Notes under the pieces: generated by a model
What the model was told of the DNA's origin: nothing
Database searches by the model: none
Seen by the model: the letters and a program-made list of their open reading frames with translations, nothing else
In this document: piece after piece, positions 23,105 through 56,158 of the stretch
Numbering within the stretch: the first letter of the stretch is position 1
How the letters are laid out: each line of letters starts with the position of its first letter
Position numbers and translations under genes: made by a program
From: an uncultured Verrucomicrobiae bacterium
GTDB lineage: Bacteria > Verrucomicrobiota > Verrucomicrobiia > Limisphaerales > Palsa-1400
DNA: 64,000 nt
Assembly (NCBI GenBank): GCA_963707025.1
Contig: CAVPOM010000004.1
Location: forward strand, 512,001 to 576,000
Reading direction: 5' to 3'

Positions 23105-25003
23105 CTACGGCCTCTTGATGCGATAGAAAACATCGGGAAGGCCGTTTCCGAGGTTGGTTATCCAAAGGAACGAATTGGTGAGGGTGTAGCCTAACCGTGG
23201 ATACCAAGCCACCGTGCCGGAGAGGTTGGTCGTGTACTGCAAGGTGTAGTTGGTGTGGGCAAGCCCGTACGCCAGCAAGTTCGGGTTCTGGCCGGACAAG
23301 GAGCCTTCGAGAATGGGCGGATCGGCGTTGAGCACCCCATAGCGATAAAAGACGGCCTGGTTGCTTGAACTGAGGCCGGTGACGAATTGGAACGAATTGG
23401 CCAATGGAATCCGCCTCAACAGGGTCCAAGATGAACCGAGATCGGTGGTGTAATCAATTTCGTAGGCTTGACCCGGGGTGCCATAGAGCACAAGGACCTC
23501 GTTTGCGCCCGGCGGCTCGATTTGCACGTCCACGATCGGCGGGGCCGCGGTGAACTGGAATGCCCGGTAAAAAATCGCCGGCTGGGTTCGATCCAGGTTC
23601 GAGATTACCGCCGTGAGATTGGTCATGGGCACACGCACCAGATCAGTCCACCCATTTGTCCGGGCCAGGTTCACCGAGAATTGAATCTGATAGCTGTCGC
23701 CGGGGATTCCGTAGAGCACCAGATTGCGGGCGCCCTGAGGGGTCAGTGTTGAGTCGAGCAGGGGCTGGGGTCCAATGATGACCAAGCGGCCCAGTCCCGA
23801 CGCAAGATTGGCCGGCCTCGATCCGTCCGCATTGACTCCTTGCAGCGATTGCGGCGCAAGCTGCACAAAGGACGATGACTGGCTGGAAACGGTCAACAAA
23901 CTCAACTGCGCAATTTGTTGATTGCCGAGAAAAGTCTGTCCGGGCGCGGCGGTAAAACCGATTTGCAGACTTGTGGGCGAGAGAAACTGAAACAAAGTCG
24001 AAGCGACCAACGACGGATTGTCCGTAATGAAGAACGTCGTGAAATCAGCGACGGGCAGGTCCAGCACGAACTGGACATTGGTCAGGCTCGTCCCGGCCGT
24101 CAATTGGATCGGGATGACGCTCATCCCTCCCGCCAGCACAACATCCGAGCCAAAGGCCAGCAGCACGGGCGGGCCTCCGCCAAGCGTGCCGCTGGTGGCC
24201 GACCCCACCAGGAAGTTGGTGGGGAACACCAGGCTGTAGGATTGCGAGAGGCCATGCGGGGATGGCCCAAGGACGGTCGCGGTGAATTCCTGGTTTCCAA
24301 CCGGCAGATAATTCGTGCCGCCGGCCGCGGCAATCAAGTCTGCCACGTTGAAGAACGCCTGGTTGGTCGCCGCGCCATCACCCACCACCGCGGCCAACAC
24401 GCTGGGGGTGTTGGTGTTGGAGAGTGTGATAATGGCCCCGGCGGGGCTGGCATCATCGAGGGTGATGACCAGTTGCTCGGACTGCAACACAAAGGAGGTT
24501 TCCTGGGCGGTCATCACCGAAGGCAGCGGGCCGGACGCGGGCCATTGTGCGGTTTGGCCGTTGGTATTTGAAACCTGAAGTTGGTAATAATAAGAGGCGC
24601 CGGGAGAGCAGTCGGAAACCCGCGCCTGGAACAGGCCAAGGCTCATGGTTTGCTGACGCAACGCGGTCAGATCGAGGAGGCGGTCATAGGAATTGGTCAA
24701 CGCCGGATCGCCCGTGTGCATCGGATAGTATTCCACGCCCACCTGCCCCGCCAGATTGGTGGCACCTCCCGCGTCGGCGAAAATGGAAATCGAGGCGGTC
24801 ACCGAGGCGCTGGGCGGCGGCGAGACGGAAGCGACGACCGAGAAGCCGCCGGGAGTGACATTGACCGTCCTGACGTTGGTGATGACGATCTGGGCGGCGG
24901 CGGAAAAAGCGCCGAGGAACAGACACGCCAGGACCCGCGCCCAACCGCCGCCGGGCCGCGCGCGGCGCTGCGGATGCCTGGAATTTAGAATTGACGCTGG
25001 CAT
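23105..25003 (-). CDS. Secreted beta-rich protein: FN3-like + cohesin-like + three tandem FYR domains
   Basis: Signal peptide; PGASYYYQL FN3-like; three LYG.PG..Y.I.....L..W....FYR units. Confidence 0.7.
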   Translation of the reverse strand: MPASILNSRHPQRRARPGGGWARVLACLFLGAFSAAAQIVITNVRTVNVTPGGFSVVASVSPPPSASVTASISIFADAGGATNLAGQVGVEYYPMHTGDPALTNSYDRLLDLTALRQQTMSLGLFQARVSDCSPGASYYYQLQVSNTNGQTAQWPASGPLPSVMTAQETSFVLQSEQLVITLDDASPAGAIITLSNTNTPSVLAAVVGDGAATNQAFFNVADLIAAAGGTNYLPVGNQEFTATVLGPSPHGLSQSYSLVFPTNFLVGSATSGTLGGGPPVLLAFGSDVVLAGGMSVIPIQLTAGTSLTNVQFVLDLPVADFTTFFITDNPSLVASTLFQFLSPTSLQIGFTAAPGQTFLGNQQIAQLSLLTVSSQSSSFVQLAPQSLQGVNADGSRPANLASGLGRLVIIGPQPLLDSTLTPQGARNLVLYGIPGDSYQIQFSVNLARTNGWTDLVRVPMTNLTAVISNLDRTQPAIFYRAFQFTAAPPIVDVQIEPPGANEVLVLYGTPGQAYEIDYTTDLGSSWTLLRRIPLANSFQFVTGLSSSNQAVFYRYGVLNADPPILEGSLSGQNPNLLAYGLAHTNYTLQYTTNLSGTVAWYPRLGYTLTNSFLWITNLGNGLPDVFYRIKRP

Positions 25004-25009
25004 GTCAGT

Positions 25010-25849
25010 TTAATGAGTGGTGGCGCCGGAGGCCGGTGCCGGCGTTTGGAATTGCGGAACGACCCGCGAAGCGGCGCGCTGCAACCCCGGCTGGCCATGC
25101 CGCGCGAGAATCAGTTCGCCGCCGGCCAGGATGGCATAGCGCCTCACCCCGCCGGCCTTGAGGGCCCGGGCCGTCTCCTGCGCTGTGCCGTCGGCGCTGT
25201 CAATCAAGATCAGCAGCGCCGGCACGCCGGATACGGCCAGGGAGCTTTTTCCCGGGACAAAACTGGCCAGGCGCATGCCGGGGAATTCCTGGCTCAGGTC
25301 GGTCAGCGGCTGGCTTGGGGCATTGGTGTCGCCGGCCACGGACGGGCGTGCGGATGAGGGTGGTTTGCGCAAATCAACCAGCACCACCTCTCCCGGGTTG
25401 GCTGCTTTCAACCCGGCATAGGTGATGTAGTTGAACGTCTCGGACTTCATGCCGGCTGCGCGGGTGGTCAGGGCTTGGGCGCTTTCCCAGGTGGCAAATC
25501 CTCCTTGGAGAACTTCGGCCGTGATTCCCGGCTTTCTGCCAAGAAACGCGGCGGCGTCCTCCACCGCATTGACGGCTTCCCGGCCCAAGCCGTCCCCGTA
25601 AACGACAACCTTGCCCAGGGGCGGCAGGTTTTTGAGCGGGCAGAGGGAGGCGGGAATATTTATGGCCCCGGGAACATGGGCCTGGCTGTAAAGCTCCGGG
25701 CTGCGGACATCAATGACCGTGATCTTCGCGCCGCCAGCCAGTTGGCTCTGCAAATCAGCCACCGTGATGCCGGCGGCGGCCAGGGTCATGGCCCCGCCGA
25801 AGGCAGCCAAGGCCGCCAGCCAAACGATGATGGAATTCTTGGAGCGCAT
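25010..25849 (-). CDS. Exported tandem rhodanese-like domain protein lacking the catalytic Cys
   Basis: VIDVRSPELYSQAHVPGAINIP, LQGGFATW, second LVDLR...ILAGG; VVVYGD in place of VVVYC. Confidence 0.8.
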   Translation of the reverse strand: MRSKNSIIVWLAALAAFGGAMTLAAAGITVADLQSQLAGGAKITVIDVRSPELYSQAHVPGAINIPASLCPLKNLPPLGKVVVYGDGLGREAVNAVEDAAAFLGRKPGITAEVLQGGFATWESAQALTTRAAGMKSETFNYITYAGLKAANPGEVVLVDLRKPPSSARPSVAGDTNAPSQPLTDLSQEFPGMRLASFVPGKSSLAVSGVPALLILIDSADGTAQETARALKAGGVRRYAILAGGELILARHGQPGLQRAASRVVPQFQTPAPASGATTH

Positions 25850-25853
25850 AAGA

Positions 25854-28800
25854 TTATTGGGCTTGGGGTGTAAACTGCTGAACCGGCGCGGCCAGATTGA
25901 CCATCAATACCGCCACGTTCGGAATCGGGAAATCATTTCCAACCAACTTTCCATTCTGCACTTCGGCGACAAGCCAGGGGCCTGATTGGCCATCGAGCAT
26001 GCGCACCGAGAGGGCATTGTCCAGCCCGAGCTGGCGCAGAAGCTGGAAGGCGCTGTATGAATCCGGGAAGCCGGTGTAGCCGAAGACGCTGGCGCCGGCG
26101 GACAGGTTCAGGGGAGAAGTATTGTTGACGCCCAGATCGAGCACTTGATCGCTGTTAAACTTCACCCAAAGGAACGTGCCGGCAACCAGGGTGAAATCGG
26201 GGCCGGAGGGCGCTCCGTTGATCCAACTGGCGGTCTGACTGGTCACCTGGGGCACGAGGGAAGTGTATTCGGTAATGGATTGCACGCCGCTGCCCGCCCA
26301 CAGCGAGAGCAGGTTGTAGGCATTCTGCCCGTAGGCCGCCATGGCGGGCGTCACCGCCACCACGTTGCGATTCTGAAACACCGGTTGCAAGGCCGGCAGG
26401 GCTGCCGCCACAACGCGGGACTGGGCGGAAATCGTTTCCAGCCAAACGGCCCGGCCGTCGGCCAGGCTTGGCAGGGCCTTGAGCGTGGACGTCCGCGTCA
26501 CGGGCACCACCACCAGGCTCGGCAGATGAACCAAACGCGCATTGCCGGTTTGCGGTCCCAGGGAATTCTCCGAACAGACCAGCCAGGGGCCGTTGAGGAA
26601 GGGCTGGAATTCATCTTCCGGAGTGCTGGTGATCTGAATCTCGCGATTGCGCAGCAGGTCAAATCCGTAAATATCCAATTCCACATTCCGGTTGTCCTGC
26701 CAGACAATCCAGTTGTCATAAATGGCCGGATGCAGTTGCGCGAAGATATTCGTCGTAATCCGTCTGACCACGCCGCTTTGCAGGTCGGAGAAATAGATTT
26801 CGCCGGGGCCTTGGTCCCGGAAATCCTGCCACACCACCCGGGCAGCCTGCACATCGGCATCAACCTCATCCTGGGTGGATGGGGAAACGGCGAAGGTTTG
26901 TGAGGAGAGCATGTTGCGGGCAAAGACCTGCCAGGCAGCGCCGGTGTTGCCGGTGGCGCGGGCTTGGTACACCACCCACGGCCAATGGACGGCCGGGTTC
27001 ACCTCGTCCAAGGCCGTGGTGCTGGTGACCGCCTGGGGTCCGGTGTTTCCGTTCAAGTCGGCGAGGTAAACATCCCAGTTCCCGTTGGCTTGCTGCGCCT
27101 GCCAGACCACATAACGGCCGTCGGTGCGCGGGTTCTGCTGGATGGTTGAGGCATGTGTCACTGGGATGATGGAATTATTGGCAGCGGTGATGTCCTGCGC
27201 GTAAATATCGGAGTTGCCATCACTCTGGTCCTGCCACACCACCCAACGGCCCCGGGCGTAAGGATTCTGGGGGCCGCGCGGAAAATCGGCCACGACCTGA
27301 TTTGTGCCCGAAAAGGCGCCAATTTGCGCCAAACTCACAGCAAAATTGGTGTTGCCCAAACCATCACTCAAAGCAATCCGCACGGTGTACCAACCCGGCG
27401 GTTCGATCACACCCGCGTCATTGCGCCCGTCCCAGTTAAAGGAAGTGGTTTTGCCGGCGACGTTCGTGAAGGCCACGCTGCGAACCGCAGGCAGGGAACT
27501 CATGTCGAAACCGTAGAGGGGGTTGATGACCCAGGACACGGTGGTCGGGTTGTTGGTTGGCTGGTAAACCCCGCCGACCTCGCCGAGGACGCCCACGATC
27601 TGCGGTGTGGCGGCTAGGTTGGTCAGAACAACGGGGCTGGCCACACTGGCCGGAGCACGATAATACCCGTTGTTGATGGTCCATTGGTAATTGGTTACGC
27701 CTGCGCCGGCCACCGTCAATTGCGCCGATCCCGCCGCGGCAGGAGTGGCGGGCGTGCCGGTGATGGTCGTCGTCGGCGCCGCCGGATCAACCACCCACCC
27801 AACCGTCACCGCGCTGCTTGGATCCAGATAGGCGCCATATTGGGAACGGCCCAGGACGGAAAGGGTGCTGGCGCCCTGAGGCAGACCGGACAAAGTCAAA
27901 GGAGAACTGACCGGGAACTCAGCACTCCAGGCGTTCGCGTTCAACTGGTATATATAGAAATCTACATTCTGACCGCCAACGGTTATTGAGGCGGCGGCGC
28001 TCGCCGTGGGCGAAGAAGGCGCATTGGACAAGGTGACCCAGCCGACGACTCCCTGGAAAACATCAAGTTGGGCATTAATGGCGGTCGGGCTGGAAGAGAC
28101 GTGGAAATTGATCGGGGTCGTTCCCGGACGGATGGACAAGGCTCCGCCGGGATTATACATGGGCGTTGCGGGGATGCTCACCGAGTCAAAACCCAACGAA
28201 CCCGGCCCGGGCAGGATCAGTGTCACATTGTGGTTGGTCTCCTGGTTGCCGCTGGTATCCACCGAATAGAAACTCAGTTGATAGGTTCCCGGATTGCTCA
28301 GGCTGAATGGGAGAGCCAGCCCGAAAGGCGCGCCGTTAAGGCTGTCAAGATTTGTCACCGGACTGGCATCCTGCGTGAGGAAGTACATTTGTGTCGCCCG
28401 GCGTGACGTAATAAACGCCATTGGTGAAGGTGGAGGGTCCGGCAAACATCAGCGTGGTGACCGGGGCGTTGGTGTTGGGCGGAGGGTTTGTGTAAGTGAC
28501 AGCGTAGGTGTAGTTGCCAAGGTTGACGAAGTCGAGAATGTTCAAATAAGTGTCCTTGAAATTGGATCCCGGCTCGTAATGAAGACTGGTCCAATAATTG
28601 TTCGTGTTCAGGACCTTGCCGTCCGAACGCACGATGCTGGCGATGGGCAGTTTGGCCTGGCCCGGATCATTGAGCCGCATATAGCCCCAGTTGGCAATGG
28701 TGGCCGTCAGATTCACCTGGTAAGGGTTGGCCGAACCCGAAACGGTGGCATTGCTCAGGACGTTCACCGGGTAAACGCCGCCATCACTCTCATAAAGCGA

Positions 28801-29841
28801 ATCGGGAATCAAATTGTTGATGGAATCAAGGGCGCCGGAGGTGTCGGCCAGGAAGTCCCGGATGTTGTCGCGGCCCGGCAGGTCGTCCAGGACCTCGTGC
28901 AAAAAGAGATAAGCGTCAACCGATTTGATGAGGGAGGTTTCCGCGCCGCCCAACGCGCTGGAGTGGGTGTAAGTGGCGCTGACGGATAGGAACGTGCCGG
29001 AGAGAGTGCAAATCATGTCCCAGGCGCCCTTGGTCGTCTGACCGGGTTGCAGATTCCCCAGGTTTACGGTCAGGTTGCCGTTGGCCAGAGGGGAATCGTT
29101 TACGCGCGAACCCAGCAGTTGCGCAACCAGGATCAGATTCTGGACATTGGAAACAATCTTGGGCTGCTGTGAATTAATGATCACGTTGTTAGCCACGCCA
29201 TAGCCGACGTTCTGCACCAGAACGCCAAAGGTGAAGGGAATCGGGCTGCCCAATCCTGTAAACGGATCCATGCCGGTGACATCCCTGGGCTGGAAGTAGG
29301 TGATCTGCAACTGGGCATCGGGAGCGACGGTAATGGGAGCGGGAATCACCAGAAGCGAGGAGGAGGGGATGACCACACCGTTGATCTTGCCGCTCAAGGT
29401 GGCGCCAATTTTGTAACGCACCCCGGCGGGAGAGGTTCCCCCGGCCGACGTGGCGGGAATGAGGAACCAGCCGATCTGGGCGGTCTGCCCCGGCATGATC
29501 ACCCCGCTGCCGTTGACATCCGAAATGTTCTGCAAGGTGGGCGGCTGGACAAAAAAGTTGGAGGAGGAATCGTTGACCGTTCCATTGGTGGAGAGGGCCG
29601 GGTTTTCGAACGTCAAATTGGCGTGAAAATCGGTGATCGGATTGTTCGGGTCGTTGTCCGTGATTTGCAGGGTGGCTTGAAAACCGATCCGCTCAAGCGT
29701 CAACTGCTGCGAGAGCACGATCTGGACTTGGGCGCAAAGCCCCTGTTGCTGCTCCTGGCCGAAGGCAATCCCGTGGACGCACACCAGGCAGATGACGCCC
29801 AGCCAGCCAGCCAGGAATCGCAAGCGAAGAGGCGTTTTCAT
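25854..29841 (-). CDS. Large secreted protein (~1330 aa) with Ig-like, FlgD-Ig-like and beta-propeller repeats; one frameshift at ~28398
   Basis: ATG 29841 overlaps the upstream stop and starts a signal peptide. Removing one base joins YYVTP to ATQMYFLT. FNWDGRNDAG...PGWY; repeated VVWQD.....DIY units. Confidence 0.75.
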
Positions 29842-32800
29842 TTCCCCACCTCCGGTGTTTTGCTGGCGCTGCTGACGGCCGTGGCGGGCAGGGTTTGGCC
29901 GCACAGGTCATGCACCAGCACGTCATTGGCGTAGAACGAAGTATCCCAGCCAAGCCTCAAGGTGTAAACCTTCATGCTTTGGTCCATCGGCAGATTGGCG
30001 GCGACGCGCACGCGTTCGCCCTGGGAATTAAAGAGCCAGTCGCCCGGTTGCAGGCGGGAAACCGCGGTCCAGCCCCTGCCATCCACCCAGAAGAGATGCT
30101 CGGCCGTGGCCTCCACGCTGCGCGCCGCCGCGCCGTTGACGCCCGAGAGGCGGATTTCATGCACGTTCGCAGATTGCAGTGAGTAATTATTCACCACCAC
30201 CGCGATGTTATCCGTCCGTTCGCCGCTGCGGACGCGATCATTGGGGCGGATGCCGGCAATAGGTTTCCATGAGCCGTCGGCCATCAAGACCTCCGTATCC
30301 GCCGCGAAACAGCCATTGCCGGTGGGCTGGAAAGCCTGGTTGGACTGCTGCGGATCGGGCGCGGGACTAACCCCGCTAACACCGGGAACGCCTCCCACAT
30401 TGGAAAGGAGGGTCCCGATGATGCATCCGATGTAACTTGCGACAGCGGACGGGGCTGCAGTAACTATGTCCGCCACGCCTTCGGCAAATTGGACCGTGGA
30501 CATGGCAATGGCGGCGGCGCCCGCCAAGGCGATCAGGGTATTGTCCTTTTGACAGCGGCCCTCGGCGTTGGCAATGGCGTTGAGGCCTTCAATGAAGTCC
30601 CCGATGCCGCCGAGGAATCCGCCCAAGTCAGGCAGGCAACCGGCCAAAACATCTCCAGCACCCTGCTGGGTTTGGCCATTGGGGCCCCAATAGGTGACCG
30701 TGAAGGGAACATCCACAGACTGTTGCGGGAGCAGGACGGGCATGTAGGTGATGAGCGGCAGGTAGCTTGCCAAATTGTCCTGCGAGCCTTTGATGTTGAC
30801 GTTTTCCATCTGAATAAGCCCCTGGTTGCCCACCGTCACATTGTAGTTGGCCTGGAAACCCGGGGTAACATTATTGAACCGCATGAAAGGAGGCGCGACT
30901 GTCAATACGGGAACCGGCACGAAGGTCTCATAAGTCTCGGTGACAGAGATGTCGTAGGTGTCCGAGAAAGGCACCGGGACGACGGTGAAGTTGACCGTGA
31001 CCAGGCTCCGATTGAGCCGCGCATGCTGGTAACCTGTCTGGTCGGCCACGATGGTCATCGGTCCCGAGCTGGCGGAACAGCCGGGCGCCGAGGCCTGCCA
31101 GCTCCACGCCCCTTCTTCCAGGTTAGTGATGGTGACCAAGCCATTGGTGTCCGTGTAATACGGCCCCAAATCCGCCTGGAGCAAGTCATTGTGCAGGCGG
31201 ATGGCCGCCCCCACCAGCGTGGTGCCGACGATGTCGTCCACATAAAACTGCATTCCACCGGTCAGGCTGGAAGTCACGATGGCATAAACACCCGCCGGGA
31301 ATGGCTGGTTGAGATTTGTTCCCTGAACCAGGATGCTGTCAGAGTAGAAGGCCAGCGGTGTGCCCGATGGCGGAGTGAAAACCACGGTGAGGCTGTTGGA
31401 CTGTCCCTGTGGCAAATCCGGAAGATGGATGGTTCCATCGGGCGCGACCGCCAAGTTGAGCTGCATCCAGGAATTGGTCGGCGGCGTCAGGGTGACACCT
31501 TTGAGGTCAGTCAAGCCGTTGTTGGCTATAATGATCTGGCCGCTCTTCTGGTCACCCCGGTTGACGCTGACCTCCAAGTAGCCTTGCGCCGGTGTCGTGA
31601 CGGCCAGGACCGGAACCGCCGGGAAGAGCGTGACCGTGCCGGTGAAGGTGGCCAAGGCTCCTTCGGCGGAGGTGAAGGCAAAGGCAATTTGCGCGGTGTC
31701 CGGCGCGTCAATGGCCGCCGCCATCTGCAAGTTGATGGTCTGGTTTTGCCCCGGCAGGACCATGAAGCCCCCCGCGGTGAGGTTGGTTCCGGTGACTTTG
31801 TCCAGAGGAACCTGGGTTGTGCCGGACAGCGTATAGGCGCTGAAGCTGCAGGTAAATCCGGTCAGCGGAACATCGCCGGGGTTGACCAAGGCAATGGAAA
31901 AGTTCAACGTGCCGTTCTTGGACATCTTGATGTCGCCTTGGGCGGGATTGGAGTAAACCCGGAAAATAAAGATTTGCGCCTGGTTGAGTTGGTCCACGAC
32001 GAGGGGATTGGCCGCCCACAGGCTCAGAGACCCGCCAAAACCCGGCGGCGGGTTATAGGTGTATTGGTAGTTGCCATTGGCATCGGTGGTCACCGGGATG
32101 TGCCAGCGGTAACCGCGCGTGGCGAAACCGAGGTTCAGGGCCGCATTGGGAAGGGGCAATCCAGTGGCGCGGGTGATGGCCTGCCCGGTGATGAGGACCG
32201 CATCGTCATTCGTGTAAATGATCTTGTCGGTTTGGGCCGTGCCGTAGTACGGCGTTTGCGCCAGGCCGGAGACCATGCTCCCAAACAGCGGGCCGGAAGT
32301 GAGTTGAGCCGGAGTGCCGATTTGGCTGTAGTTGGTGCCGACCACGGCTTCGAAGGTCACATTCCCGGTGCCAACCAGCGCCGCCGGCACCAGGACGTTG
32401 GGGGCGGTGAATTGAACCGAGGCTCCTGGGGCGACGTTCACATAGGCGGTGCCGTCCGGCAGGAAGGTGGTTCCCGGCGGCGTGCCTTGGTAAGGGGTGC
32501 GGCTGACTTCCTGACCCAAGGAATTCTGGACCGAGATATAAACATCGCCGGGCTGGTTTCCGCTGGCCCGCTCCACGATGAACTGCATGTTGACGTAACC
32601 GCGATTGAAGACCTGGACTTGGAACGGGGTCAAACCGCCGGCCAGCGGAAGCTGGTTGGCGGAGATGGCAACCTCGGTACCCGGCAACTGGCTGTTGACC
32701 AGCGTAAAGACACTCTGGTAGGTGACGCTGCTGCCCTCACTATCCGTTTGCTGGACCGCGCTTACCTGAATGGTCTGGGTGGCCACCACCGGGGCTTCCG

Positions 32801-35800
32801 CGACGATAACGCTTTGTTGAACGTTGCCGCCGGGACTGACGGTTGCAACCAGGTTCTGCGTCACACTCAATGGGTCCGCGCCCGGCACGGCCCGGTTCCA
32901 GATCACGCGCGCCAGCGGCAGGCTGGCCGTGCCGCTGAGGTTGGTGATCCCGGCTTGAAATTGATCAAAATAGCCGGTCAGAAGCGGGTTGCTGGCACCG
33001 GTCCCCGCCGCGTTTGCCAACAAACCAAAAGCCACCGGATTCACCGTGACAATGCGCTGGGGCCCTTCCTGCGCCGAAACGTTGACCGCCGTCACACCGT
33101 AGGTGATGGCATCGGACATCGGGAGGTTGTCGGTGTAGTTCGTCGCCGTCAACAGAACCGAGTTCTGTTTGATGCCGTTGCGATAGACATTGAAGCCCGC
33201 CACGGTGGGATCGTTGCTGCTCCAAGTGAGGACCGGCACCTGACCCAAAACAGACAGGACAGACAGGTTGTTGACAGGACTGACCAGCAACTGGATCGAG
33301 GCCGGAGCGCTCGGATTCTCATTGCCCACCGCGTCCACGGCGGAAACGATGTAGCTGTCCGTGCCGCGTGGAGGATAATCAATGACCGGCCCCGCGATGG
33401 ATAACGTCTGAATGCGCGTCCCGTTGCGATAAACGTTGTAATGGTCGGGTGTCTCCCCGCCGGACGGTTCCTGCCAGGCAACCCGCACACCGCTGGGAGC
33501 CAGGGAAACGGTGACATTGACCGGCGCGGCAGGGGGCGTGCTGTCCGACGTGGCGGTCACGACATTGGAAATGGCGCTTTCAGACCCGAGCCGGCTGGCG
33601 CTGATGCCATAGCTGTAAAGTCCGTCGCCCGGAGGCAGATCAACCACGTAATTGCTGGTGATGCCGTCGAGGTCCAAGGTATATGGAACGACGAAGTTTG
33701 ACCCCGATTCGCGGTAGAGCCGGTAGATTTGCGCGTTGCTGACGGCGTCCCAGGAAAGACGGATGCTTCCGCCCGCGAGGCTGGTGGCAAGCAGCTTCGT
33801 CGGCGCCGCCGGTGGCGCAGGCAGGGAGGTGTTGTAAAGTTCCAGGCGGCCGCCCGCAATGATATTGGTTCCGACATTGCCCACGCTGTCCTGGGCGCTG
33901 AGGGCAAACTGGCCAAATCCTGAACCCATCCCCGGCGTGAGGGCGAGCGTTCCGCTCCAGTTAATGCCGGTGCCCGCGAGTGCCACGGGAACCGCGGAGC
34001 CGGCCGGCGGCGTGAAGGCGAGAGTGGGGGCCGTGCCCGACGCAGCCGGTTTAGTCAAAGTCACGCCCACGGATACACTCGTATTATTGACAGTTTGCAC
34101 GGGGCCGGCTGGCGCGGTGGCGATCGTTCCGGCGGGAGGCGTGGTATCAACCGTCAAGGGCGCACCGGAGGGGGCGCCGTTAAACGTATTGCCAACCTGA
34201 TCCTGCGCGGTGGCCATTACAGACACCGTGCCGGACGGCGTGGTGGACGCGATGACAAACACCGTTTGGTACGTGTTGAGCGCCACGTTGGTAAGGCTCA
34301 ACAACACCGGCGAGGCGGCGCCATTGGGCCGGAAGGTCAGCGAAGGCGGCGAGGCGAGGGCTTTGGTGGAGGTCAACGTGATGCCAATGGGGCCAACCCC
34401 GGCAGGCGAAGGCTGGTTGTAGGCGATGCTCAGGGCGGGCGGTGTGGGATCGTAAAAGGCCGACACCAGCGCGGAGAGCGGGCTTGGATTTCCGGCGGCA
34501 TCAAATCCAACGACGCCAAAGTAATAGGTCCCCGGAGCCACGCCCTGGACCGTGTAAGACGACAAACCGAGCAAGACCGAATGGCCGGTGGCCAGATTGG
34601 TGCTGGCAAAGGGTGAAAGGCTCCAAAACACTTCGAAGGTGGCGGGCGGCTTGCCCGATGGTGCAAAGCTCCAAGTGAGATTCAACCCCGCGCCCGGCGT
34701 GTAAACCGGCTGGTTGAGCACCACCGCCGCCGGCGCAACGGTTTCCACGGTGACGTGCCGCGCGACCGAGGAGGCGGACCCCGTGCTGTCGGAGGCCACC
34801 GCAACGATAGTGTTGACACCTTCCGCCAGGGTGAGGCCGGCCAGGTTGAAATTGCCCTGGGCGTCTGCCGTGACCGTTCCCAGAAACTGGCTGCCGGCGG
34901 AAACCTGGACGCTCATTTCCGGCTCCGCGGTTCCGCTCACGGTCAAGGCCGGATTGTTGGTCACGTAGTCCCCGGCGGGCGAAGCGATGACCGGCGCCTG
35001 CGGCGGCGTGACGGCAACGATAACGTCTTCGGAGAGCGTGGCGAAGTTGCCCGCCGTATCCCGCGCCAGCAATTCGACCTGGTGAATCGCGCTGCTCAGG
35101 GAGCGAAGGTCGAAGAAGTACGAAAAACTCCCGCCAGCGTTGGTGATCTGCAACACGTTATCCAGATAAAACTCAATGTCCAGGACACCGAGCGCGGCGG
35201 TGGCAGAGCCGGTGACCGTCAGCGGACGGTTCAACGTCTGGCCATCAGCGAGGCTGAAGGAGTGGATGACAGGCCCGGCGGTCACATAATTGATGTCCAG
35301 CTCCAGGGGCGCATTGGTCTGGCCGGTGATGCTGCGGTATTGGGCAAAGACATGTTTCAGTCCGCCGCCTGCCGAGAGCGGGAAAGTGGCAAAGTTGGTG
35401 AACGGGACGAAAAAGACGCCATTGAAAGTAAAATCCTCGCTCAGGCGCATGGAAGCGGCCGTGCGGCAAGCCAGTTGCACGTTGGCCGACGGGGTGCCGA
35501 CCTGGGTCACGCCGTTGGAAGCGCCGAGCGCCGGGGTCAGCAGCGGTTCAAAGTTGAGGAAGGGATTGTAAGTGACATTGCCCGCCAACGACGCACTCAC
35601 GCCGGCGTCCACCGCCGTGCCCCACCAATTGTTGGCGGCCGTCATGGGCAGGCTGCCTGCGGCGAAGGCGTTGGTTTGGTTGTTTTGGATCACGGAGTTT
35701 TGCATGGCCAGCAGCGCCGTGTCCGATTGTTCGATGCCGATTCCGTTGCCGCTGACCAGGGCGTTGCTCGATGTCAGGCTGGCTCCATCCCGGAGGGCGA

Positions 35801-38800
35801 GGCCCGTCGTGTTGAAACTGGCTGTGAACGCTTGAACCGAGGGCGCGCAGGCGTTGAGCGTCAATCCCCGGCCGTAAAGGATTTCCACGAAACTCAGGCT
35901 CGACCCGCCCGCGCCGCTGCCCAGCGTCACTCCGGCCCAATCACCCGCCGCGGGAGTGAGGCCCGGCGAATCGTTGGCCGAATCAAAAATGACAGGCGCC
36001 AAGGCGGTGCCATTGGCGGTCAGAGTGCCCTGCTGCACCGTCAGGCTGGTGCCGGGGGCGAAAAACAACGTGGTGCCGGGCTGAATGGTCAAAGTCGCGT
36101 TGCTCACGACGGTCATGCTTTGATAGATGTTGACCACCCTCTGCCCGGGGCCGCCGATGCTGGTGTTGACGCTGATGTTGCCCGCATAGGGATCGGACCA
36201 TTCGGCCGTGGCGACGGCGGGGTTGAAGTTGTTTTCCGCGTTGAAACCGGCCACGGCGAAATAATAAGTCTGGGTGCGGTCGAGGCCGTCCACCTGGAAG
36301 GAAGTGGCGGCGGGGCCGAGGGTCGCGCGCGAATTGAGACCGGCGACCGAAGTGAAATTGGTTTGCTGGTAGTAAACCAGGAACCCGGCGAAGCCCAGCA
36401 GGCCTGAGGTGTTGTAGCCGCTCCACGAGAGGAGAGCCGAAGTGCCTCCCACCGCCGATTCTTGAACGGTGACCGGCGGCGGCACCGCGCTGGGAATGGT
36501 AATGGCCAGCGGCGAGACCGCGGCAAGGCTGTTGCCCGCCATGTCCAGCGCCTGGATGGCGACATAATACGGGGTGTCGAGCGCCAGACCGCTGAATTGG
36601 AAGCTGCGCGCGCCTGAGCCAAGCCCGGTCAGAACAGGCAGGGCCGCAACGGAGCTGAAGTTGGTGCCCTCGATGTAAACGCGGAATCCAGCCAGATCGG
36701 GCGGCGCGGCATAACCGGCCCAGCTCACCGTGGCGGAACTGCTGTTGGTGGCGGTCACCGCCAGGACCGGGTTGGGCGGCGCGGTGGCATCCACCACGAA
36801 CTGCGCCGGATTGGTCGAAACCAGGAAATCGCCATTGACATCCTGCGCGCCGGAAACCAACAACTGGACCGTGCCATCCATGCCCGCGGCGAAGGTGACG
36901 GGCGGGGTGTGGTAGGTATCATTGCTCAGCGCGTTGGTGGTCCAATAACCATTGGTCGCCACCACGGCTTGAGGGACGACGGCGCTGTTGGTGAGGAGGA
37001 TGATGGGGGAAATGTTGCTGGCCATGCTGCGGTCGAACCGAAGCGTCAACAGGAAGTTCGTGGTGGCCGGAACGGTCCCGGCAAAATTGGCGGTGATGTT
37101 GATCACCTGGGGCAGGACGTTGAATTGGCCGTAAACGGCCACGTATTGGAGATTGGTCGGATCCAGGGTGGAGAAAGTCTTGCCAAAGGCGGCCTGGGCG
37201 CTGGCTGGCGTGTTGCTGAGGGTGAACTGCTGGAACACGTAGTAATAGGGCGGATTGGTGACAGCCAGCGGGGCGCTGAAGTTGGCGGTCTGGCCGTTGG
37301 CGTAAGTGCCCCCTCCCGCCACCGCAGCCACGCCCGGCGGAGAGGTGGCGGTGGTGACAACATGAGTCACGTTCGCCTCCGTGTAGTTGGCCACAAATGA
37401 ATGATCGGCAAACACAACGTTGGTCAAGGAGAGGTTCGTGCCGACGACAGTGGGGCCTTCGGTCCAATTGGTGAAGTGGTAGCCGATATTCGGATAGGCC
37501 GTCAGCACGCTGGTGGCGCCGTAGATATATGAACCCGCGCCGAGGATGGAGCCGGCGGCGGCGGGATTGTTCGAAACAGAGATGGCGTAAAGGGGAAGGG
37601 CGAAGTTCGCGACCAGATTGCGATTCCGGTTTACCGTGAAGGAATAAGTGGCGCTGGTGCTCTGCAAGACGCCGTTTTCCGTCCAACCCGTGAAACTGTA
37701 AGGCAGCGTCGCGGTGTTGGCCGCGGCGGTGACGACGGCGGTGGCGCCTTGCAGATAATTACCCCCGCTGGACGCGGTGCCGCCGCCGGCGGGATTGACC
37801 GCGGTGGCAATGGTGAAGAGTTGCGCCCCGGCCACAGGCGTGGTGGTGAAATTGACCGCCTGGTTTGCGCCGTTCATCGCCACCGTTTGCGGGGCGACGT
37901 TGTTGTAGCCGGCGGCGGGCAGGCCGGTGACGCCCACTTGAAAGCTCTGGTTGGGAACGGAGATCTGGTAGCTGCCGTCGGCGCCCGTTATGGCTTGAAG
38001 AATCGAGGCGGCGCCGGGAATGATCACCTGGACATTGTCCACGAAGCTGTTGTTCGCTTCGTTCGGGTTTAAATCCAGGAAGGTCAAAGGAGTCAGGCTG
38101 GTGCTGGCGGTGAATTCGATCTGGACGCGTCTCCAGTCAAGGTTGCCGCTCCCGCCGCTGGTTTCGCCGAAGGTATAATAATTGGTGTCAATGGTCACTC
38201 CGAGAACGCTGTTGCGGCCGTAATGGCTGTAACTTCCATGATAAAAGATCAGGTCATAAGTTGTCCCGGGAGTAGTCGGGAAACTTTGCGTGACACCGCC
38301 GCCGCCGGTATGGCCCGCGGGGTCCATGAACTGGTTGCCGTCTTCCGCCGGGCCCTCCCAGTAAAGGCTGACCAAGTCCACATCGGCGCCGGCGTGGCCG
38401 ACCACGGCCCAGCCTGTGACGCTGGTCGAACCTAATCCGTAATAAGTGTAGGGCGTGGTTCCTATGGAGGGGAGTTCGAAGCTGCCATTTTGAACCAGGT
38501 TGCTCACGCCAACCATGTCGGCAAAAACCGTGACGCCGGAAATGGGATGGTTGCTGGTGTCGGTGACCAGCCCGCTGATTTGCAGGGGGGCGGCCAGGGT
38601 GGGCGGGGCCAGGGCCTGCAAGGTGACCGAGGCGGGTCCGTAGTTCAGGTCCCAATTCACGCCACCGCTCAGAGGCGGCAGGTTGGCGGTGGCAAAGACG
38701 CCCGACTCCGAAGCATAGGAGATGAGCGCAACAACGTCGCCCACGGCCGGCGTGTAGCCATTGAGAAGGTTGACGCCGAGAGTGCCATCGAGGTTGACAT

Positions 38801-41800
38801 TGCCTGGCAGGAACAACTGGCCGGCCAGGTTCGGCCCCGACAGGCCGAAATCGAGCGTGGCGCCGGCCTGCGCATAGGTGGCGGAGTTGATGAAGTTGAG
38901 GTAGCCTGATTCAATGTCGAACGCCCCCCCCGAATTGAGGACGGATACATTGTTGAAGGTGGTCCCGCCAAAGGTGACGGTTTTGGACAAGGTGCCGTTG
39001 TTGACGAAACTGGAATTGCCACCGCCATAAGCGCTGTTGATCTGGTAATCGTTCTGGACCAGCCAGAGGCTGTTGTTGGTGATGGCCGTGCCGCCGCTGC
39101 CCCGAACCGCCCCTCCCGTCCACAGCACCGTGCCGTTGTTGACCAAGACTGACCCAGGCATGTTCTTGTCGGAGCCGGTGGCCAGGTTGAGCACCGCGTT
39201 GCTCGCAATAGTCAGCCAATTGTTGTTCAGTCCGCCGGCATTCCAGTTCAAGGTCCCGGTGACGGTATTGGAGCCGGTCAAAGTGGCGCCTGAAAGGGTC
39301 AGGTTGGTGATGGCACCGCTGTTCTGGAAAGCAGGGCCAAGAACAAGATTGCCTCCGGCCAAAAGCAAGTTTGGAATTTGGTCGGTCAGGAGGGTGAGTG
39401 TGCCGCCGCTGAACTGGCTCGCCCCAGGACCCTCGAAGAGCGGCGGCGCGCCCGCGGAAAAACCGCCCCCTGTCAGACTGAGCGTCGCAAACTGGGCGAC
39501 GTTGTAGGTTCCGCCAAGCAGGCCCCCGCCCGCGAAATTGACGGCGCCGGTCTCGACATCCACGAAACCGCTGTTTTGAAAGGCAACAGAGCCGTTCAAG
39601 GTGGTTGTGCCGTAGGTGCCCTGTTTGCGGAACGTGCTGTTATTGATGAAGGTCACGCTGCCGCCATTGTTGTAGATTTGATCATCGGACTCTTCCAGCC
39701 AAAGCCCGTTGTTGTCGAACACGGCCCCATTGTTGCCCACCAGCGTGGCGCCGTTCCAGAAGACGGCGCCGAAGTTGGTCAGGGAACTGGCGGGGAAATT
39801 GAGATTTCCACCGGAAACCAGGTTCAACACCGCATTGCTGGCCACCGTCAACGAGCCGCTCAAGGAACCCGCCCCCCAGGTGTAGGCGCCGGTCACGGTG
39901 TAGTTGCCGGAAAGGGTCGCGCCCAGGTTGGTCAAATTGTTGATCGCGCCCGCATTCTGAAACGCCGCGCCCAGGACGACGGTGCCGCCTTCCAGGAGCA
40001 GGCCGGGAGCCAGGTCGTTCAGCAGCGTCAGCGTGCCGCCGGTCAGCCGGGTGGTCCCGGCGCCGGTGATGGAGGGCAAGGCATTGAACACAAAGCTGCC
40101 GCCGTTGAAATTGATGAAGGCGCCGGAGGCGGTGTTGTAGGTCCCCGAAAGCGTGCCGCCGGAGTTGAGGTTGAAAGCGCCGCTTTGGGCGTCCAGCGTG
40201 TTATTGTTGACAAACGCCAGGCCGGTGATGGTCGTCGTGCCAGTGGCGGCGGATTTGCGCAGCACGCCGTTGTTGATAAACGTGGCCGCGCCGTTCCCAA
40301 AACCAATCTGGTTGTCGCATTGCACCAGCCACAGATTGTTGTTCGTCACCACCGAAGCAGCATTGCCGTTCAGGTTGCCTCCGGTCCAATTGACCTGGCC
40401 CGAATTGATCAGCGCGGAACCTGACATGTCTTTATCGGAGCCGCTGAGGTTGAGCACGCCGTTGGGGGCGACGGTCAATTGGCCGCTGAGAGAGCCGCCC
40501 GTCCAATTGAAAGTGCCGGTCACGGTGTTCGTGCCCGAAAGGGTTGAGCCGGCAATGGCCAGGTTGGTGATCGAGCCGCCCTGGAAGGCAGGGCCGAGCA
40601 CGACCGTGCCGTGAACGAGGTAAAAGCCGGGGGGGATGTCGTTGAGGATGGTGAGCGTCCCGCCGGCAAACTCACCGGCCCCGGAACCGGTGAAGGCCGG
40701 CAGGGCGCCCAGGGTAAAGGCGCCGCCATTGAAATAAATATAGGAGCCCGCCGCGGTGTTGTAAGTCCCGCCGAGCGTCCCGCCGCTGTTGAAGTAAACC
40801 GGTCCGGCCTGGGCGTCCACCGTGCCATTGTTGACAAACGACAGGCTGTTGAGAAAGGTCGCGCCGCCGTTGTTCAGGGTCCGCAAGATGCTATTGTTGA
40901 CAAAGGAGCCGCCGTTCAGGCTGATCTGGTTGGCCGCCTCCGCCAGCCACAGCCCGCTGTTGGTGATGACGGTGGCGGCGTTGCCCGAGAGGGAGCCGCC
41001 CGTCCAGAGGACCGTGCCGAGATTGACGAGGGTCCCTCCGGAAAGACTGACATTGCCGCTGATGTTCAGCGCCGCGGTGGCCGGGATGGTCAGCAGTCCG
41101 GCCACCGTGCCGCCCGTCCAGGTGAACGCATTGGTGGCGGACAGGACGCCCGGGCCTTGCAGGGTCCCGCTGCTGAAATGGATATTGTTGACAGTAGCGC
41201 TGCCGCCGATGTTGACGGCGCCCCCGTTGGCGATGGTCACGTTGTCCAGCACCCCGGGAACGCCGTTGGGACTCCAGTTGCCCGGTGTAAACCAGTCGGA
41301 GGAGACCGCGCCGGTCCAGGTGTAATTGGTGGTCTGCGCCTGGTCGGAATAGACCGTGATGTTGACCGGCGCGGAGGTTGCGACCGCGCCCGCCGCGTCA
41401 ATCGCCCACGCGCTGAGGGTGTAAATACCGGGGGAGACGGAGTTCCAGGTGAAATTATACGGGCTGCTCAGGGCCTGCCCGATCAGGTTGGTGCCCTGGT
41501 AGAACTGGACGGCGGCAATGGCGGCATTGGTGTCGCTGACCGTGGTGGCAATGGGGATGTTGACAGGAATGGCGAACTTCTGGTTGTTGGTCGGACTGGT
41601 GATGCTGATGGCCGGACCGAGCAGGTTGGTGATCAAAAGGGTCACGGCACTGGCGCCATAGGTGAGCTGCCAGGAAGCCCCATCGGCCGGAAGATTGGTC
41701 GTGGAAAAAGTCCCGCTATGCGAGGGATAACTGATGATATTGAAAGTGTTGCTCAGGCCGAGGACATAATTGTTGTCCAAATTGACATTCAGGGTGCCGG

Positions 41801-44800
41801 CCAGGGTGGCGGCGCTGCTCAGGCCGATGTGACCGCTGCTGCCCACCCCGTCAATGCCGATGGCCCAGGCGCCGCCAGTCTGGCTGAAGGCGTTGTTGAA
41901 ATTCATCGTGCCGCTCTCGGCGTCCACGACGCCTGTGCCAATGTACTGCACACTGATCGGGCTGGCGCCCGTGGTTCCCCATTTGCGCAGGAGTCCGGCG
42001 TTGTTGATGAATTCGCCTCCCGTATAATCACCCAAGCTCTGGTCGCATTGGATATTAATCGCCGCCCCCGCCTGATTATACAGGCCGTAGTAGTAGAACG
42101 TCCAAGGGCCGGCGGTCCAATTGATCGTTCCGGAGTTGGTCACCCAATTCTGCAAGCCCTTGTTGCTGGAACCGGTGAGGGTGAGCACGGCGTTGCTCGG
42201 GATCATCAGCGGCGTGTAGAGCCTGCCCCCGTTCCAGTTGGCGGTCGCTCCCGGATTCAGGGTCAGCGCCGCGTTGACGTTGCCATTCCAACTCACTGTG
42301 GCGTTGCTCAGAACGGTCAACGGCCCGTTGATATTGCCGTTGAGGGTCAGGGTTCCCGAAACGGCGTTGCTGCCAATCAGATTCTGCCCGTTGAGGGTGA
42401 GGTTGGTGATGGTGCCGCCCTGGAAGTTGGTGCTGAGGGCAATCGTGCCGCCGCTCATCTGAAGATTGGGAATCGTGTTGCTGAGCAGCGTCAATGTGCC
42501 CCCAGTCATATAAAAACTGCCCGCGCCGTCGAACAGCAGGGGAGGGGTAATGGTGAAGCTGCCCCCGCTCAGATACAAAGCGCTTCCGCCGGCAATGCTG
42601 TACGGGCCGGACAAAACCGCGCCGCCGTTGAAATTGATGACGGTCCCGGCTGCGCCCAGAAACGTCCCCGAGGGATTCTGCACCAAATTGTAGAAAGTGA
42701 AGTTCCCGGATTCCAAGTCAACGGTGGCGGTGTTGTAAATCTGCACGCTAATGCCGCTCGTGCCTGTGGTTCCCCATTTGCGCAGGAGTCCGGCGTTGTT
42801 GATGAATTCGTTGCCCGAATAATCACCCAGGCTCTGATCGCACTGGATATTAATCGCCGCCCCCGCCTGATTATACAGGCCGTAGTAGTAAAACGTCCAA
42901 GGGCCGGCGTTCCAATTGATCGTTCCAGAGTTGGTCACCCAATTCTGCAAGCCCTTGTTGCCGGAACCGGCGAGGGTGAGCACGACGTTGCTCGGGATCG
43001 TCAGCGGCGTGTAGAGCCTGCCTCCGTACCAGTTGGCGGTCGCTCCCGGATTCAGGGTCAACGCCGCGTTGACGTCGCCATTCCAATTCAAGGTGGCGTT
43101 GCTCAAGACGGTCAACGCGCCGTTGATATTGCCGTTGATGGTCAGCGTTCCGGAAACCGTGCAGGCGCTGGCCAGGTTCAGGCCGTTGAGGGTGAGGTTG
43201 GTGATGGTGCCGCCTTGGAAGTCGGTGCTCAGCGCAATCGTGCCGCCGCTCATTTGCAGATTGGGAATGGGGTTGGTCAGCAGCGTCAGCGTGCCGCCTG
43301 TCATGAGATAATTGCCCGCGCCATTGAACAGCAGGGGTGGGCTGATCGTGAAGGTCCCAGCGCCCAAATTCAACGTGCCGCCGGCAGCTATGGTGTAAGG
43401 GCCGGACAAAACCGCGCCGCCGTTGAAATTCATGACGGTTCCGGCTGCGCCCAGAAAAGTCCCCGAGGGATTTTGAACCGAATTGTTGAAGATGAGGTTC
43501 CCGGATTCCAAATCAATCGTGCCGGTGTTGTAAATCTGCACGCTGATGGAACTGGTGCCGGTATAGGGCGCTCCGAAGGTGGCCAACTTCTGGAGGGTGC
43601 CGGCGTTGTTGATGAATTCGCTGCCCGAATAATCACCCAGGCTCTGATCGCACTGGATATTAATCGCCGCCCCCGCCTGATTATACAGGCCGTAGTAGTA
43701 AAACGTCCAAGGGCCGGCGTTCCAATTGATCGTTCCGGAGTTGGTCACCCAATTCTGCAAGCCCTTGTTGCCGGAACCGGCGAGGGTGAGCACGGCGTTG
43801 CTCGGGATCATCAGCGGCGTGTAGAGCCTGCCTCCGTACCAGTTGGCGGTCGCTCCTGGATTCAGGGTCAACGCCGCGTTGACGTCGCCATTCCAATTCA
43901 AGGTGGCGTTGCTCAAGACGGTCAACGCGCCGTTGATATTGCCGTTGATGGTCAGCGTTCCGGAAACCGTGCAGGCGCTGGCCAGGTTCAGGCCGTTGAG
44001 GGTGAGGTTGGTGATGGTGCCGCCTTGGAAGTCGGTGCTCAGCGCAATCGTGCCGCCGCTCATTTGCAGATTGGGCACGGTGTTGCTGATTAAAGTCAGC
44101 GTGCCCCCGGTCATCGCATAACTCCCAGGGCCGCCGAGGGAGAATGGAGGAACTTGGGTAAAGGTGCCGCCGGTCAGGTTGATGTTGGCTCCAAAGCCGG
44201 CGGTGAACGACCCGCCGAGCACCCCGCCATTTCCCAAATTGATGGCCGTGCCGTTGGCCGCGGACATGGTTCCTCCGAAACTGCCGTAGCCGAAATTGAT
44301 CGTGCCGCTGAGGACGCTGACCGTTCCGGTGGTGGTGAAGTTGACACCGATGGTGGTTGTGCCCGTGCTCAGGGACTTGCGGATCAGGCCCGCATTGATG
44401 ACGAACTCGCTGCCGTTATATCGAGGCATGCTCTGGTTGCACTGCACGTCAATCACGCCGCCGGCCAGATTGTTGATGGAGCCATCAGTCGCTCCGTTGT
44501 CGTTGCGCAGGTTCCAATTCCCCGAGCCGTTCCAAAGGATGTGCCCGGCGTTGGTCAGGGCGGCATATTGAATGACGTCAACCGAGCCACTGACATTGAG
44601 AGTGCCGCTGCTCGCAATGTTCAGCGCGCCCACGAGAGTACCGGCCAGCCAGTTCAGAGTTCCGGTCACGGTGTAGGCGCCGGACAAGCTGCTGCCGTTG
44701 AGGGTTAGATTGGTAATGACGCCGCCTTGGAACACGGGCGACAGCAAGACGGTGCCCCCGTCCAGAGGCAGGTTGGGAACCACATCATTGTTCAGAGTCA

Positions 44801-47433: not shown

Positions 47434-48441
47434 TAGAGCATTTCCATAAATCATGTAGCGTAGCGGGCGTTTAAAAAGAAGCCCCGGCAATCGGCGGTGG
47501 AGATGGCTTCAAAGGCAATCTTCGCCGCTTGGAGCAGTTCCTTGGCGGTTCGCGGCGCGAGACCTCGCATAATTTGTTTGACCTTGCTCCACATATTTTC
47601 GATGGGATTAAAGTCTGGCGAATAGGGCGGCAGATACAGCAGCGTTGCCCCGGCCTCTTCGATGGCTTGGCGGACTCCGGTCACCTTATGCGTGGCCAAG
47701 TTGTCCATGATGACCAAGTCACCCTTGCGCAACTCCACCACCAGCCCCTGCTGGATCCAGGCCAAAAACATTTCCCCGTCCATGGCCCCCTCAAAGAGGC
47801 AGGGGGCCGCAGGCCCGGCCAGACGAATGGCGCAGACCAGGGTGGTGGTCTGATAATGTCCCTGCGGGACGTGGGCCGCCAGTCTTCGGCCCACGGGTGA
47901 CCGCCCGCAAAAACGGGTCATCTTGGTGTTGGCCCCGCTTTCATCCACGAAGACCAGTCGGGCAGGTGGGTCACTTGCCAGACGCTCATGCCAATGGGCC
48001 CGCTTTTCGGCCACGTCCGGACGGTTCTGCTCGGCGGCGCAGAGCGTTTTTTTTATAGCTCAACCCCAGTTTGCGCAGCCACAAATCCACAGTGGAGGTC
48101 CCGAAAGGGCGGTCCAGACGCGCCCCCAACTCGGCCAACGTCGCGTCGGGCTGGGCCGCCACCAGCTTTTGCAGGCGAGCCTGGCGTCCGGCGTTCAGCA
48201 GCGTTTTGCGCCCGCACAAATGGGTTTGCGGCTGGAGCGTGCCGCGCTCTTGGAACTGCTGCCGGACCCGGCGCACCGCCGCCACGCAAAAGCCGAAAAA
48301 GTCCGCGATCTCGCGGGTGCTTTTGCCTTGTTCATAGAGTTGCAGGATGCGCTCGCGCGCAGACACGGGTATCGCTCGCATGGCTCAAGCCTGCCAGCCC
48401 TCTCGCCCCAGTCAAGCTATATCATTTATGGAAACGCTCTA
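47434..48441 (-). mobile_element. IS630-family insertion sequence
   Basis: 26-bp TIRs TAGAGCATTTCCATAAATCATGTAGC / TAGAGCGTTTCCATAAATGATATAGC (23/26), TA at both ends. Confidence 0.92.
47451..48381 (-). CDS. IS630 transposase, two ORFs joined by a -1 shift at the A8 run (48047-48054)
   Basis: HTH ORF 47986..48381; DDE ORF FVDESG, IMDNLATHK, YLPPYSPDFNPIE; the shift gives YKKTLCAAEQNRPDV. Confidence 0.9.
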
Positions 48442-49525: not shown

Positions 49526-49537
49526 GGCATCGGAGGA

Positions 49538-51966: not shown

Positions 51967-51971
51967 GGCGG

Positions 51972-52736: not shown

Positions 52737-52763
52737 GTTTGAATCTCATTTTGGCCGGCGAAC

Positions 52764-56153: not shown

Positions 56154-56158
56154 ATCAT

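Follow-up and report, generated by a model that had tools for sequence, protein, structure and literature searches.

The 64,000-nt stretch analysed here (the window; positions 512,001 to 576,000 of contig CAVPOM010000004.1, assembly GCA_963707025.1, from an uncultured Verrucomicrobiae bacterium) encodes on its reverse strand a giant secreted protein, chain A, which ends in a Hint domain, and directly behind it a second secreted protein, B. The catalytic residues of the Hint, the four-gene operon to which it belongs and the occurrence of both fused and split A-B architectures among its relatives can be read from the sequences. It is quite possible, if short of probable, that this Hedgehog-like Hint hands chain A to an outside acceptor, most likely the N-terminus of B. 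The features on which this proposal is built are the following (all on the reverse strand; counts refer to a set of 75 loci introduced below):

29838..47105: chain A gene, an open reading frame (ORF) of 5755 aa with a signal-peptide-like N-terminus
30684..31163: conserved A domain (about residues 5315-5474), with a CarboxypepD_reg-like part and a TVxFxVVPVPFTDxY motif
30312..30680: variable hydrophobic Gly/Ala region (residues 5476-5598), with a Cys triad followed by a Gly/Pro linker
29901..30311: Hint domain (residues 5599-5735), with C1, T69, H72, W81 and C137 conserved
30096..30107: block B motif TAEH of the Hint (T5667, H5670), Thr in 73/75 (Ser in the rest) and His in 75/75
29901..29903: distal Cys5735 (Hint C137), in 75/75 and, in another count, in 117/118
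29838..29900: unconserved 20-aa tail after the Hint, holding a Shine-Dalgarno sequence and an ATGA stop/start overlap
25854..29841: gene B (about 1300 aa mature), with a signal peptide, two Ig-like domains, a FlgD-Ig domain and beta-propeller repeats
29734..29757: predicted start of mature B, QEQQQGLC, with Gln3, Gly6 and Cys8 conserved; candidate acceptor or docking peptide

A conserved Hint domain with Hedgehog-like residues

Translation, profile search and an AlphaFold2 (AF2) model agree on the C-terminus of chain A. The Hint begins at Cys5599 (nt 30311) and ends in V-H-D5733-L-C5735, with D135 in the position of the intein Asn, 22 residues beyond this Asp and 20 beyond the Cys. The first-pass annotation had thus correctly described Cys1, the TxxH motif, the VHD-LC end and the short remainder, as well as the Gly/Ala-rich region with three Cys (Cys5490, Cys5518, Cys5561) in front of the Hint. 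The domain matches the PT-HINT profile with 34.3 bits (cut-off 27.7), which is also the best profile for 65 of the 75 members. Its AF2 model (mean pLDDT 88.9) matches bacterial intein-like (BIL) and intein folds with E 1e-10, the best being Tetrahymena BIL2, gp41-1 and the Clostridium thermocellum BIL; a search of the ESM Atlas returned generic Hint clusters only. Fold, Cys1 and block B TxxH, the marks of the Hint superfamily, are all present.

A search with the last 500 aa against 1.84 billion representatives gave 119 proteins at E <= 1e-30; among the best 150 listed matches, 116 carry the A domain and 94 of those have a complete Hint end. Residue conservation was counted in a paired set of 75 loci, made up of the window and 74 of 80 GTDB loci that were chosen by B-domain patterns and are biased to the Hint-coupled clade (the other six were omitted for a missing A domain, a short B or a fusion). 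Named records with the Hint-B family are mostly from Verrucomicrobiota, others being labelled Deltaproteobacteria/Desulfobacterales, Myxococcota, Gammaproteobacteria or Lentisphaerae; Pedosphaera parvula (WP_007412597.1), Marinicellulosiphila megalodicopiae (WP_422380681.1) and Haloferula sargassicola (locus L117) are members that are in culture and not pathogenic.

Cys1, His72, Trp81 and Cys137 are invariant in the 75 loci and Thr69 is found in 73, at a median identity of 36% across the Hint domains. Conservation does not extend to the residues for C-terminal cleavage: the penultimate (G6) His is found in 35/75, the F13 His in 11/75 and the G7 Asn in 0/75. At the intein-Asn position the 94 complete Hint ends have Asp (46), Gln (26), Glu (14) or His (8) and never Asn; in the 75 loci this residue 135 is Asp, Gln or Glu in 69 and His in six. 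The +1 residue behind it varies (Leu 32, Arg 11, Ser 7, Met 6 and others), and the Cys stands at +2. Within the HD-x-C end, which had been put forward for a conservation check, the Cys is accordingly constant, and HD occurs in only 26 of 74 homologs. No toxin tip follows the Hint in any of the 94 complete ends, whose tails are 8-60 aa long; in the locus sets the tails of 15-61 aa are unconserved. Homologs with HN and variable toxin tips, of which the window copy might have been a degenerate form, were therefore not found. Because the N-terminal catalytic residues are invariant and those for C-terminal cleavage are not, N-terminal thioester chemistry appears well supported, and judged by sequence the domain is a conserved family trait and not a decayed toxin Hint. 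Cys5735 is proposed to be the residue that forms a branched thioester or a disulfide. At Hint positions 26-90, the stretch where a base like D46 of Hedgehog would be expected, no acidic column reaches 64 of 75.

Chain A consists of a signal peptide, a long repeat region, Ig, FN3 and choice-of-anchor-C domains, the A domain, the Cys-triad region and the Hint, and its relatives span 3218-7753 aa (44 members). The earlier description as a giant adhesin holds with respect to a giant secreted protein; the term adhesin is an interpretation of the Ig, FN3 and choice-of-anchor-C domains. The A domain is common to fused, Hint-type and RHS-type relatives, and the Pfam version searched contains no model for the A/B domain pair; a newer one, PF28492, which precomputed annotation places on 4 of 26 homologs, may cover one of these domains. 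The region between A domain and Hint is the least conserved part (median identity 22%). Its Cys5490, Cys5518 and Cys5561 are kept in 74/75, 59/75 and 75/75 loci, and its Gly/Pro linker runs to the putative scissile Gly5598, a position mostly occupied by Gly or Ala. The hydropathy of chain A's variable region peaks at 1.68 (averaged over 19 residues), and that of the segment before the junction reaches at least 1.2 in 65/75 and at least 1.6 in 31/75 loci. As this segment is the most variable part and sits between two near-invariant Cys, it is not clearly an anchor. Cys parity was rejected as a test for an A-B disulfide, the number of Cys in the variable region being odd in 42/75 loci and the test thus not clean; nor are the middle Cys of this region and Cys119 of B mutually exclusive (34/25/10/6 of 75).

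Gene B overlaps the end of the chain A gene

The ATG of B at 29841 overlaps the stop of chain A (ATGA), and GGAGGT lies at 29848-29853 within the 'EVGK' tail, features by which B is predicted to be translationally coupled to the chain A gene. In 62 of 77 split loci, too, an in-frame ATG or GTG shares bases with the stop. In the 80-locus set the Hint lies directly upstream of B in 78 (77 split, one in a single frame), the remaining two having less than 300 nt of upstream DNA, and all 18 metagenome loci encode a Hint and a split B. The first-pass annotation had noted no barrel, anchor or immunity gene downstream; indeed no such family was matched in Pfam or NCBIfam, but the coupled gene with its signal peptide had been overlooked. 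In locus L088 (about 9900-10100), Hint and B share a single open frame, in which they remain separated by a signal-peptide-like stretch; this is a refusion, either natural or artefactual.

A full-length B of 1280-1320 aa is encoded at 70 of 80 loci. In the window assembly its frame is broken by one extra base near 28397-28399. This is probably an assembly error, since related-strain contigs in three sequencing runs (X1, X2, X12; a fourth gave no cover) and the close relative L053 lack the extra base; public runs cover only small shares of the region (<=0.12). The operon occurs a second time in this genome, as a paralogous copy (G000:C4, about 76000-95900; L001) of the same layout, with a Hint that ends in VHDKCG and is 50% identical, a full-length B that is about 79% identical over the first ~470 aa, and downstream a rhodanese-like gene, the third gene and an S8 peptidase. 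Its giant gene, too, is spread over more than one frame, a sign of indel errors in the assembly. A fold search with B residues 1-286 gave generic tandem Ig-like matches only (TM <0.3).

Fused, split and stand-alone architectures

A scan of 301 genomes of the order located the A domain in 87, at 136 places that form two score groups (30 strong, 106 weak), of which 20 and 40, respectively, were fetched. All 20 strong places encode A, variable region and Hint followed by a separate B. At 35 of the 40 weak places, A, a variable Cys-rich region and B are encoded in one ORF without a Hint; the other five extend past the end of the fetched DNA, two entering RHS-like repeats. A search for relatives, whose locus set overlaps in genomes with that of the A-domain scan, yielded 30 loci: 10 Hint-split, 16 fused, one with an open-ended Hint, one open-ended, one ending without a B nearby, and one (L030) fused but frameshifted. 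A tree of 124 B domains shows three groups, Hint-coupled, fused (58 of 59 grouped) and stand-alone (n=14, weak support).

A third arrangement is seen at loci L135-L143, L150, L187, L200 and L041, where the A domain either continues into RHS cores with variable tips or lies ahead of them, and a stand-alone gene for secreted B comes further along. In three loci (L037, L041, L136) B is flanked by genes that are presumably transglutaminase-like and rhodanese-like, judged by eye from their motifs. A truncated A-domain fragment of about 95 matched residues lies beside a transposase-like frame in the genome of the window (G000:C12, about 304500-304800; L002), with no Hint or B within 14 kb.

The N-terminus of mature B

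After its signal peptide, B of the window begins QEQQQGLCAQV. A small residue at -1, eight before the Cys, is present in all 80 B loci and fixes the predicted signal-peptidase site. From there the consensus reads Gln (61), Ala (16) or Thr (3); Gln (64), Glu (9) or Thr (6); Gln (77); Phe (53), Gln (14) or Tyr (13); Gln (65); Gly (80); Leu, Val or Trp; and Cys (80), residue 1 being Ala in the proteobacterial members (15/75). The Q-x-Q-x-x-G-x-C start is typical of Hint-coupled B (Gln at -5 in 33/35, Gly in 35/35) and was not seen among the 65 fused or the 14 stand-alone B. Folded alone, residues 1-10 have a pLDDT of 58, and the two Ig-like domains behind them are well predicted. The predicted first residue of the third gene of the operon is not fixed (Ala 31, Gln 10 of 54 in a rough alignment), so the N-terminal pattern of B exceeds a general preference for Gln. 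In five fused loci (L025, L027, L029, L030, L031) the B Cys is lost and the variable region has no middle Cys either, which hints, from one clade only, that these two Cys pair.

Proposed reaction and alternative explanations

We infer each chemical step of the reaction from residue patterns and known Hint chemistry. In Hedgehog, C143, equivalent to the intein C+1, accepts the N-chain from C1 as a branched thioester, a C1-C143 disulfide can form, and the chain is then passed to cholesterol (PMC12054796, seen in part); the roles assigned here to individual Hint residues follow the intein steps in the part consulted of PMC4031507. Chains A and B would be exported separately, each by its own signal peptide. 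Cys5599 would form a thioester at Gly5598, assisted by T69 and H72, and the 5598-residue chain would move to Cys5735; by analogy, a Cys1-Cys137 disulfide may delay this transfer until reduction. The branch would not be resolved internally, as the Asn is absent and the two assisting His are not conserved. Since the residues fit the first two Hedgehog steps and offer no means for the third intein step, a persistent thioester would be resolved by an outside nucleophile, which takes chain A as the Hint leaves. With no substrate-binding region after the Hint, and a B domain following at this place in fused relatives, co-translated B would be the obvious acceptor, probably through its flexible conserved octapeptide (the thiol of Cys8, or the alpha-amine where residue 1 is Ala or Thr). 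Once both proteins are exported, ligation would restore the A-linker-B chain, which in Hint-less relatives is a single polypeptide. The complete version, in which the Hint is a single-turnover ligase that passes the chain from Cys1 via Cys137 to the Q-x-Q-x-x-G-x-C peptide of B and rebuilds a chain of 7,000-9,000 residues outside the cytoplasm, is put forward as a tentative hypothesis. The first-pass annotation had proposed activation of the C-terminus for release or for covalent coupling to a lipid, surface or partner protein; the thioester part of this is supported by the residue pattern, and the best candidate acceptor, B, had escaped it.

Several observations weigh against ligation to B. 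All 50 Hint-coupled B domains of the tree fall in one clade (support 1.0); Hint and split thus arose together once, and the counts given above are not independent. In the third clade, B is a separate signal-peptide protein at 14 loci, with an RHS end motif nearby in at least 7 and no Hint in the fetched DNA of any of them, so that ligation of A to B is not a necessity. Cys8, found likewise in 59/65 fused and 14/14 stand-alone B, predates the Hint, and a second Cys near residue 119, found in 40/75, could tie it up. The amine of Gln1 is probably blocked as pyroglutamate, because a glutaminyl cyclase (PF05096; G000:C4:753997-754728, E 1e-97) is encoded in the genome and Gln is the commonest residue after signal-peptide motifs (77/242, by a rough pattern). 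Cyclase and Gln bias together suggest a Q-rule outside Bacteroidetes; in five other genomes, a cyclase was found in one, without a pattern relative to residue 1 of B, type II enzymes lying outside this search. Two chains of the Hint clade, P0102 and P0103 (45% identical), have no Hint and both end in ...G-C-P, P0103 retaining a 'GGEQ' tail that resembles coupling tails; their loci were not recovered in the metagenome scan (18 loci, all with Hint) or in a class search of 251 genomes (0 matches). Finally, the distal Cys stands at +2 and not at +1. Complex prediction for the Hint (residues 5586-5740) with B 1-286 from 75-row paired alignments scored 0.00 in both runs, which tells neither for nor against contact, and inter-chain mutual information from the 75 rows was uninterpretable, the top pairs tracking the split between proteobacterial and verrucomicrobial members.

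The catalytic pattern would be identical if the same thioester relay ended on an acceptor other than B, such as a lipid, an envelope glycan or a protein of the surface or a target cell (an anchor or chemical harpoon), with B attached to the A domain through contact or a disulfide, in the manner of the other architectures. The hydrophobic segment before the junction, the existence of B as a separate chain without a Hint and the probable pyroglutamate agree with this explanation, which may apply but has a somewhat smaller claim on belief; it leaves the fixed N-terminal peptide of B unexplained, the tails are unconserved and hold no region resembling a sterol-recognition region, and an invariant acidic residue is missing where the D46-like base is expected (the equivalent position being approximate). 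We consider it rather unlikely that the Hint is only a redox-gated pro-domain, closed by a Cys1-Cys137 disulfide and hydrolysed or thiolysed off to expose the hydrophobic Cys-triad segment. B-type BILs do cleave without splicing (PMC4031507, in the part consulted), the disulfide has its precedent in Hedgehog C1-C143 (PMC12054796, likewise in part), and the segment, at 22% identity, could be a payload, but there is no evident gain from removing a domain with nothing behind it, and neither the strict four-gene context nor the B peptide would be accounted for.

In atypical cis-splicing, residue 135 would cyclise and the amine of residue 136 would take the chain from Cys137, giving an A chain that ends X-Cys-Gly-tail, whose Cys forms a disulfide with Cys8 of B. 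Inteins whose last residue is Asp, Gln or Glu are able to cyclise (PMC4031507), these residues hold position 135 in 69 of 75 loci, and the G-C-P-tail end of the Hint-less P0103 resembles such a product. His at this position in the other six, the unconserved assisting His residues, a Cys one residue too distant for a standard S-N shift and the failure to recover the P0103 locus nevertheless make splicing improbable. Still less can be said for a Hint that does not cleave and instead tethers A to B structurally or by a disulfide: Cys8 of B has no partner in the variable region or the first B domains of some members (L060, L127), yet T69 and H72, which a tether would not need, are retained with Cys1 across domains of 36% median identity. 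There is hardly any room for a degenerate pretoxin Hint that lost its tip. PT-HINT is the best profile for most members and relatives with RHS cores and variable tips exist, but Asn or a tip was found in none of the 94 ends, Cys137 is invariant, and the Hint is intact in many phyla and in the paralog of the same genome. As a description of the present state this is refuted; as an evolutionary origin it may hold.

If ligation to B occurs, it would be a natural inter-gene protein ligation without a split intein and a new route to assemble giant surface proteins, and the domain of ~137 residues might be a peptide-tag ligase. The proposal also names a specific candidate substrate for bacterial Hints that carry no cargo.

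Other genes of the operon and its surroundings

Two further secreted proteins are encoded behind B on the same strand:

25010..25849, reverse strand: secreted rhodanese-like gene, with the predicted active-site loop VVVYGDGLG that has no leading Cys
23105..25003, reverse strand: third secreted partner gene, without a Pfam match

The rhodanese-like gene was seen behind B in 41 loci and the third gene in 61 loci of the 80-locus set, in which the DNA after B is 1.5 kb or longer in 66 loci and some genes escape the ORF picker. The predicted loop is without a leading Cys in 21 of 22 matched rhodanese-like proteins. A secreted S8 peptidase (21527-23089, reverse strand) follows the operon in the window and in the paralog, and in only four loci of the 80-locus set. 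Immediately upstream of the giant gene lies a two-ORF DDE_3 transposase (47451-48381, reverse strand), which we take to be IS630-like, and the genes at 48797-57649 (reverse strand) are presumably those of a urease and a urea ABC transporter, judging from their translation.

Comparison with known Hint systems

The arrangement resembles the Hog-Hint of Hedgehog in that a secreted protein ends in a Hint with C1, T69 and H72 and without a terminal Asn. By analogy, the invariant C137 may correspond to Hog C143, which can relay the N-chain (PMC12054796, in the part consulted). Unlike Hog, the domain is bacterial, is followed by an unconserved tail (20 aa in the window) and not by a sterol-recognition region, has no evident equivalent of D46, lies nearer in sequence to PT-HINT and BIL domains, and has a fixed downstream partner gene. 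PT-HINT and A-type BILs (PF07591; C. thermocellum BIL 2LWY; 8W20) are indeed closest by profile and sequence and, like it, close a large secreted protein behind a variable region. They are known from a toxin context (PMC3482391, in the part consulted), whereas here His-Asn, toxin tip and immunity gene are lacking, an invariant Cys stands at +2, and the next gene encodes a secreted partner of 1300 aa.

BIL2 of Tetrahymena BUBL1 (6TMM/6Y75) is the top match by fold and sequence. It uses its N-terminal thioester to join the N-chain to another protein, attaching a ubiquitin-like domain (PMC8616854, as far as seen), and differs in being eukaryotic and cytoplasmic, with ubiquitin cargo, a lysine acceptor and a terminal Asn (N143A in the PDB title). 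B- and C-type BILs are likewise bacterial Hints in variable regions, which cleave but do not splice in the canonical way (PMC4031507, PMC7765530 and PMC9185962, each in part). Unlike B-type BILs, which have no block G similarity, the window Hint keeps a block F/G-like terminal strand, its FYANxVLV-x-x-x-C aligning through this strand with BIL2 and 2LWY. C-type BILs, compared through a secondary mention only, are described with a PPS-1 domain and from predatory bacteria (PMC9185962), and may overlap with the present domain. Class 1 inteins differ in having a terminal Asn, Gln or Asp with Cys, Ser or Thr right behind it at +1, a position that varies here, the Cys standing at +2, and in being inserted into a conserved host protein with a real C-extein, the flanks here being least conserved; a class 3 intein is not indicated either, F4 being Thr (48), Asn (17) or Ser (10) of 75 and not Cys, with Cys1 invariant.

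In a largely open-access literature on bacterial, B-type and C-type BILs (apart from the original BIL papers) and on Hints of verrucomicrobial giant proteins, we found no description of this Hint family, and the main text of a giant-gene preprint contains no passage on inteins or Hint domains. On the sequence evidence, the domain is a variant within the Hint superfamily that sits in a fixed operon of secreted proteins, is Hog-like in its putative working, and belongs neither to Hog nor to the PT-HINT toxins. It defines a bacterial Hint type with a Hedgehog-like residue set (C1, TxxH, distal Cys, no Asn) and offers a natural model for how Hedgehog chemistry might arise from a BIL-type domain.

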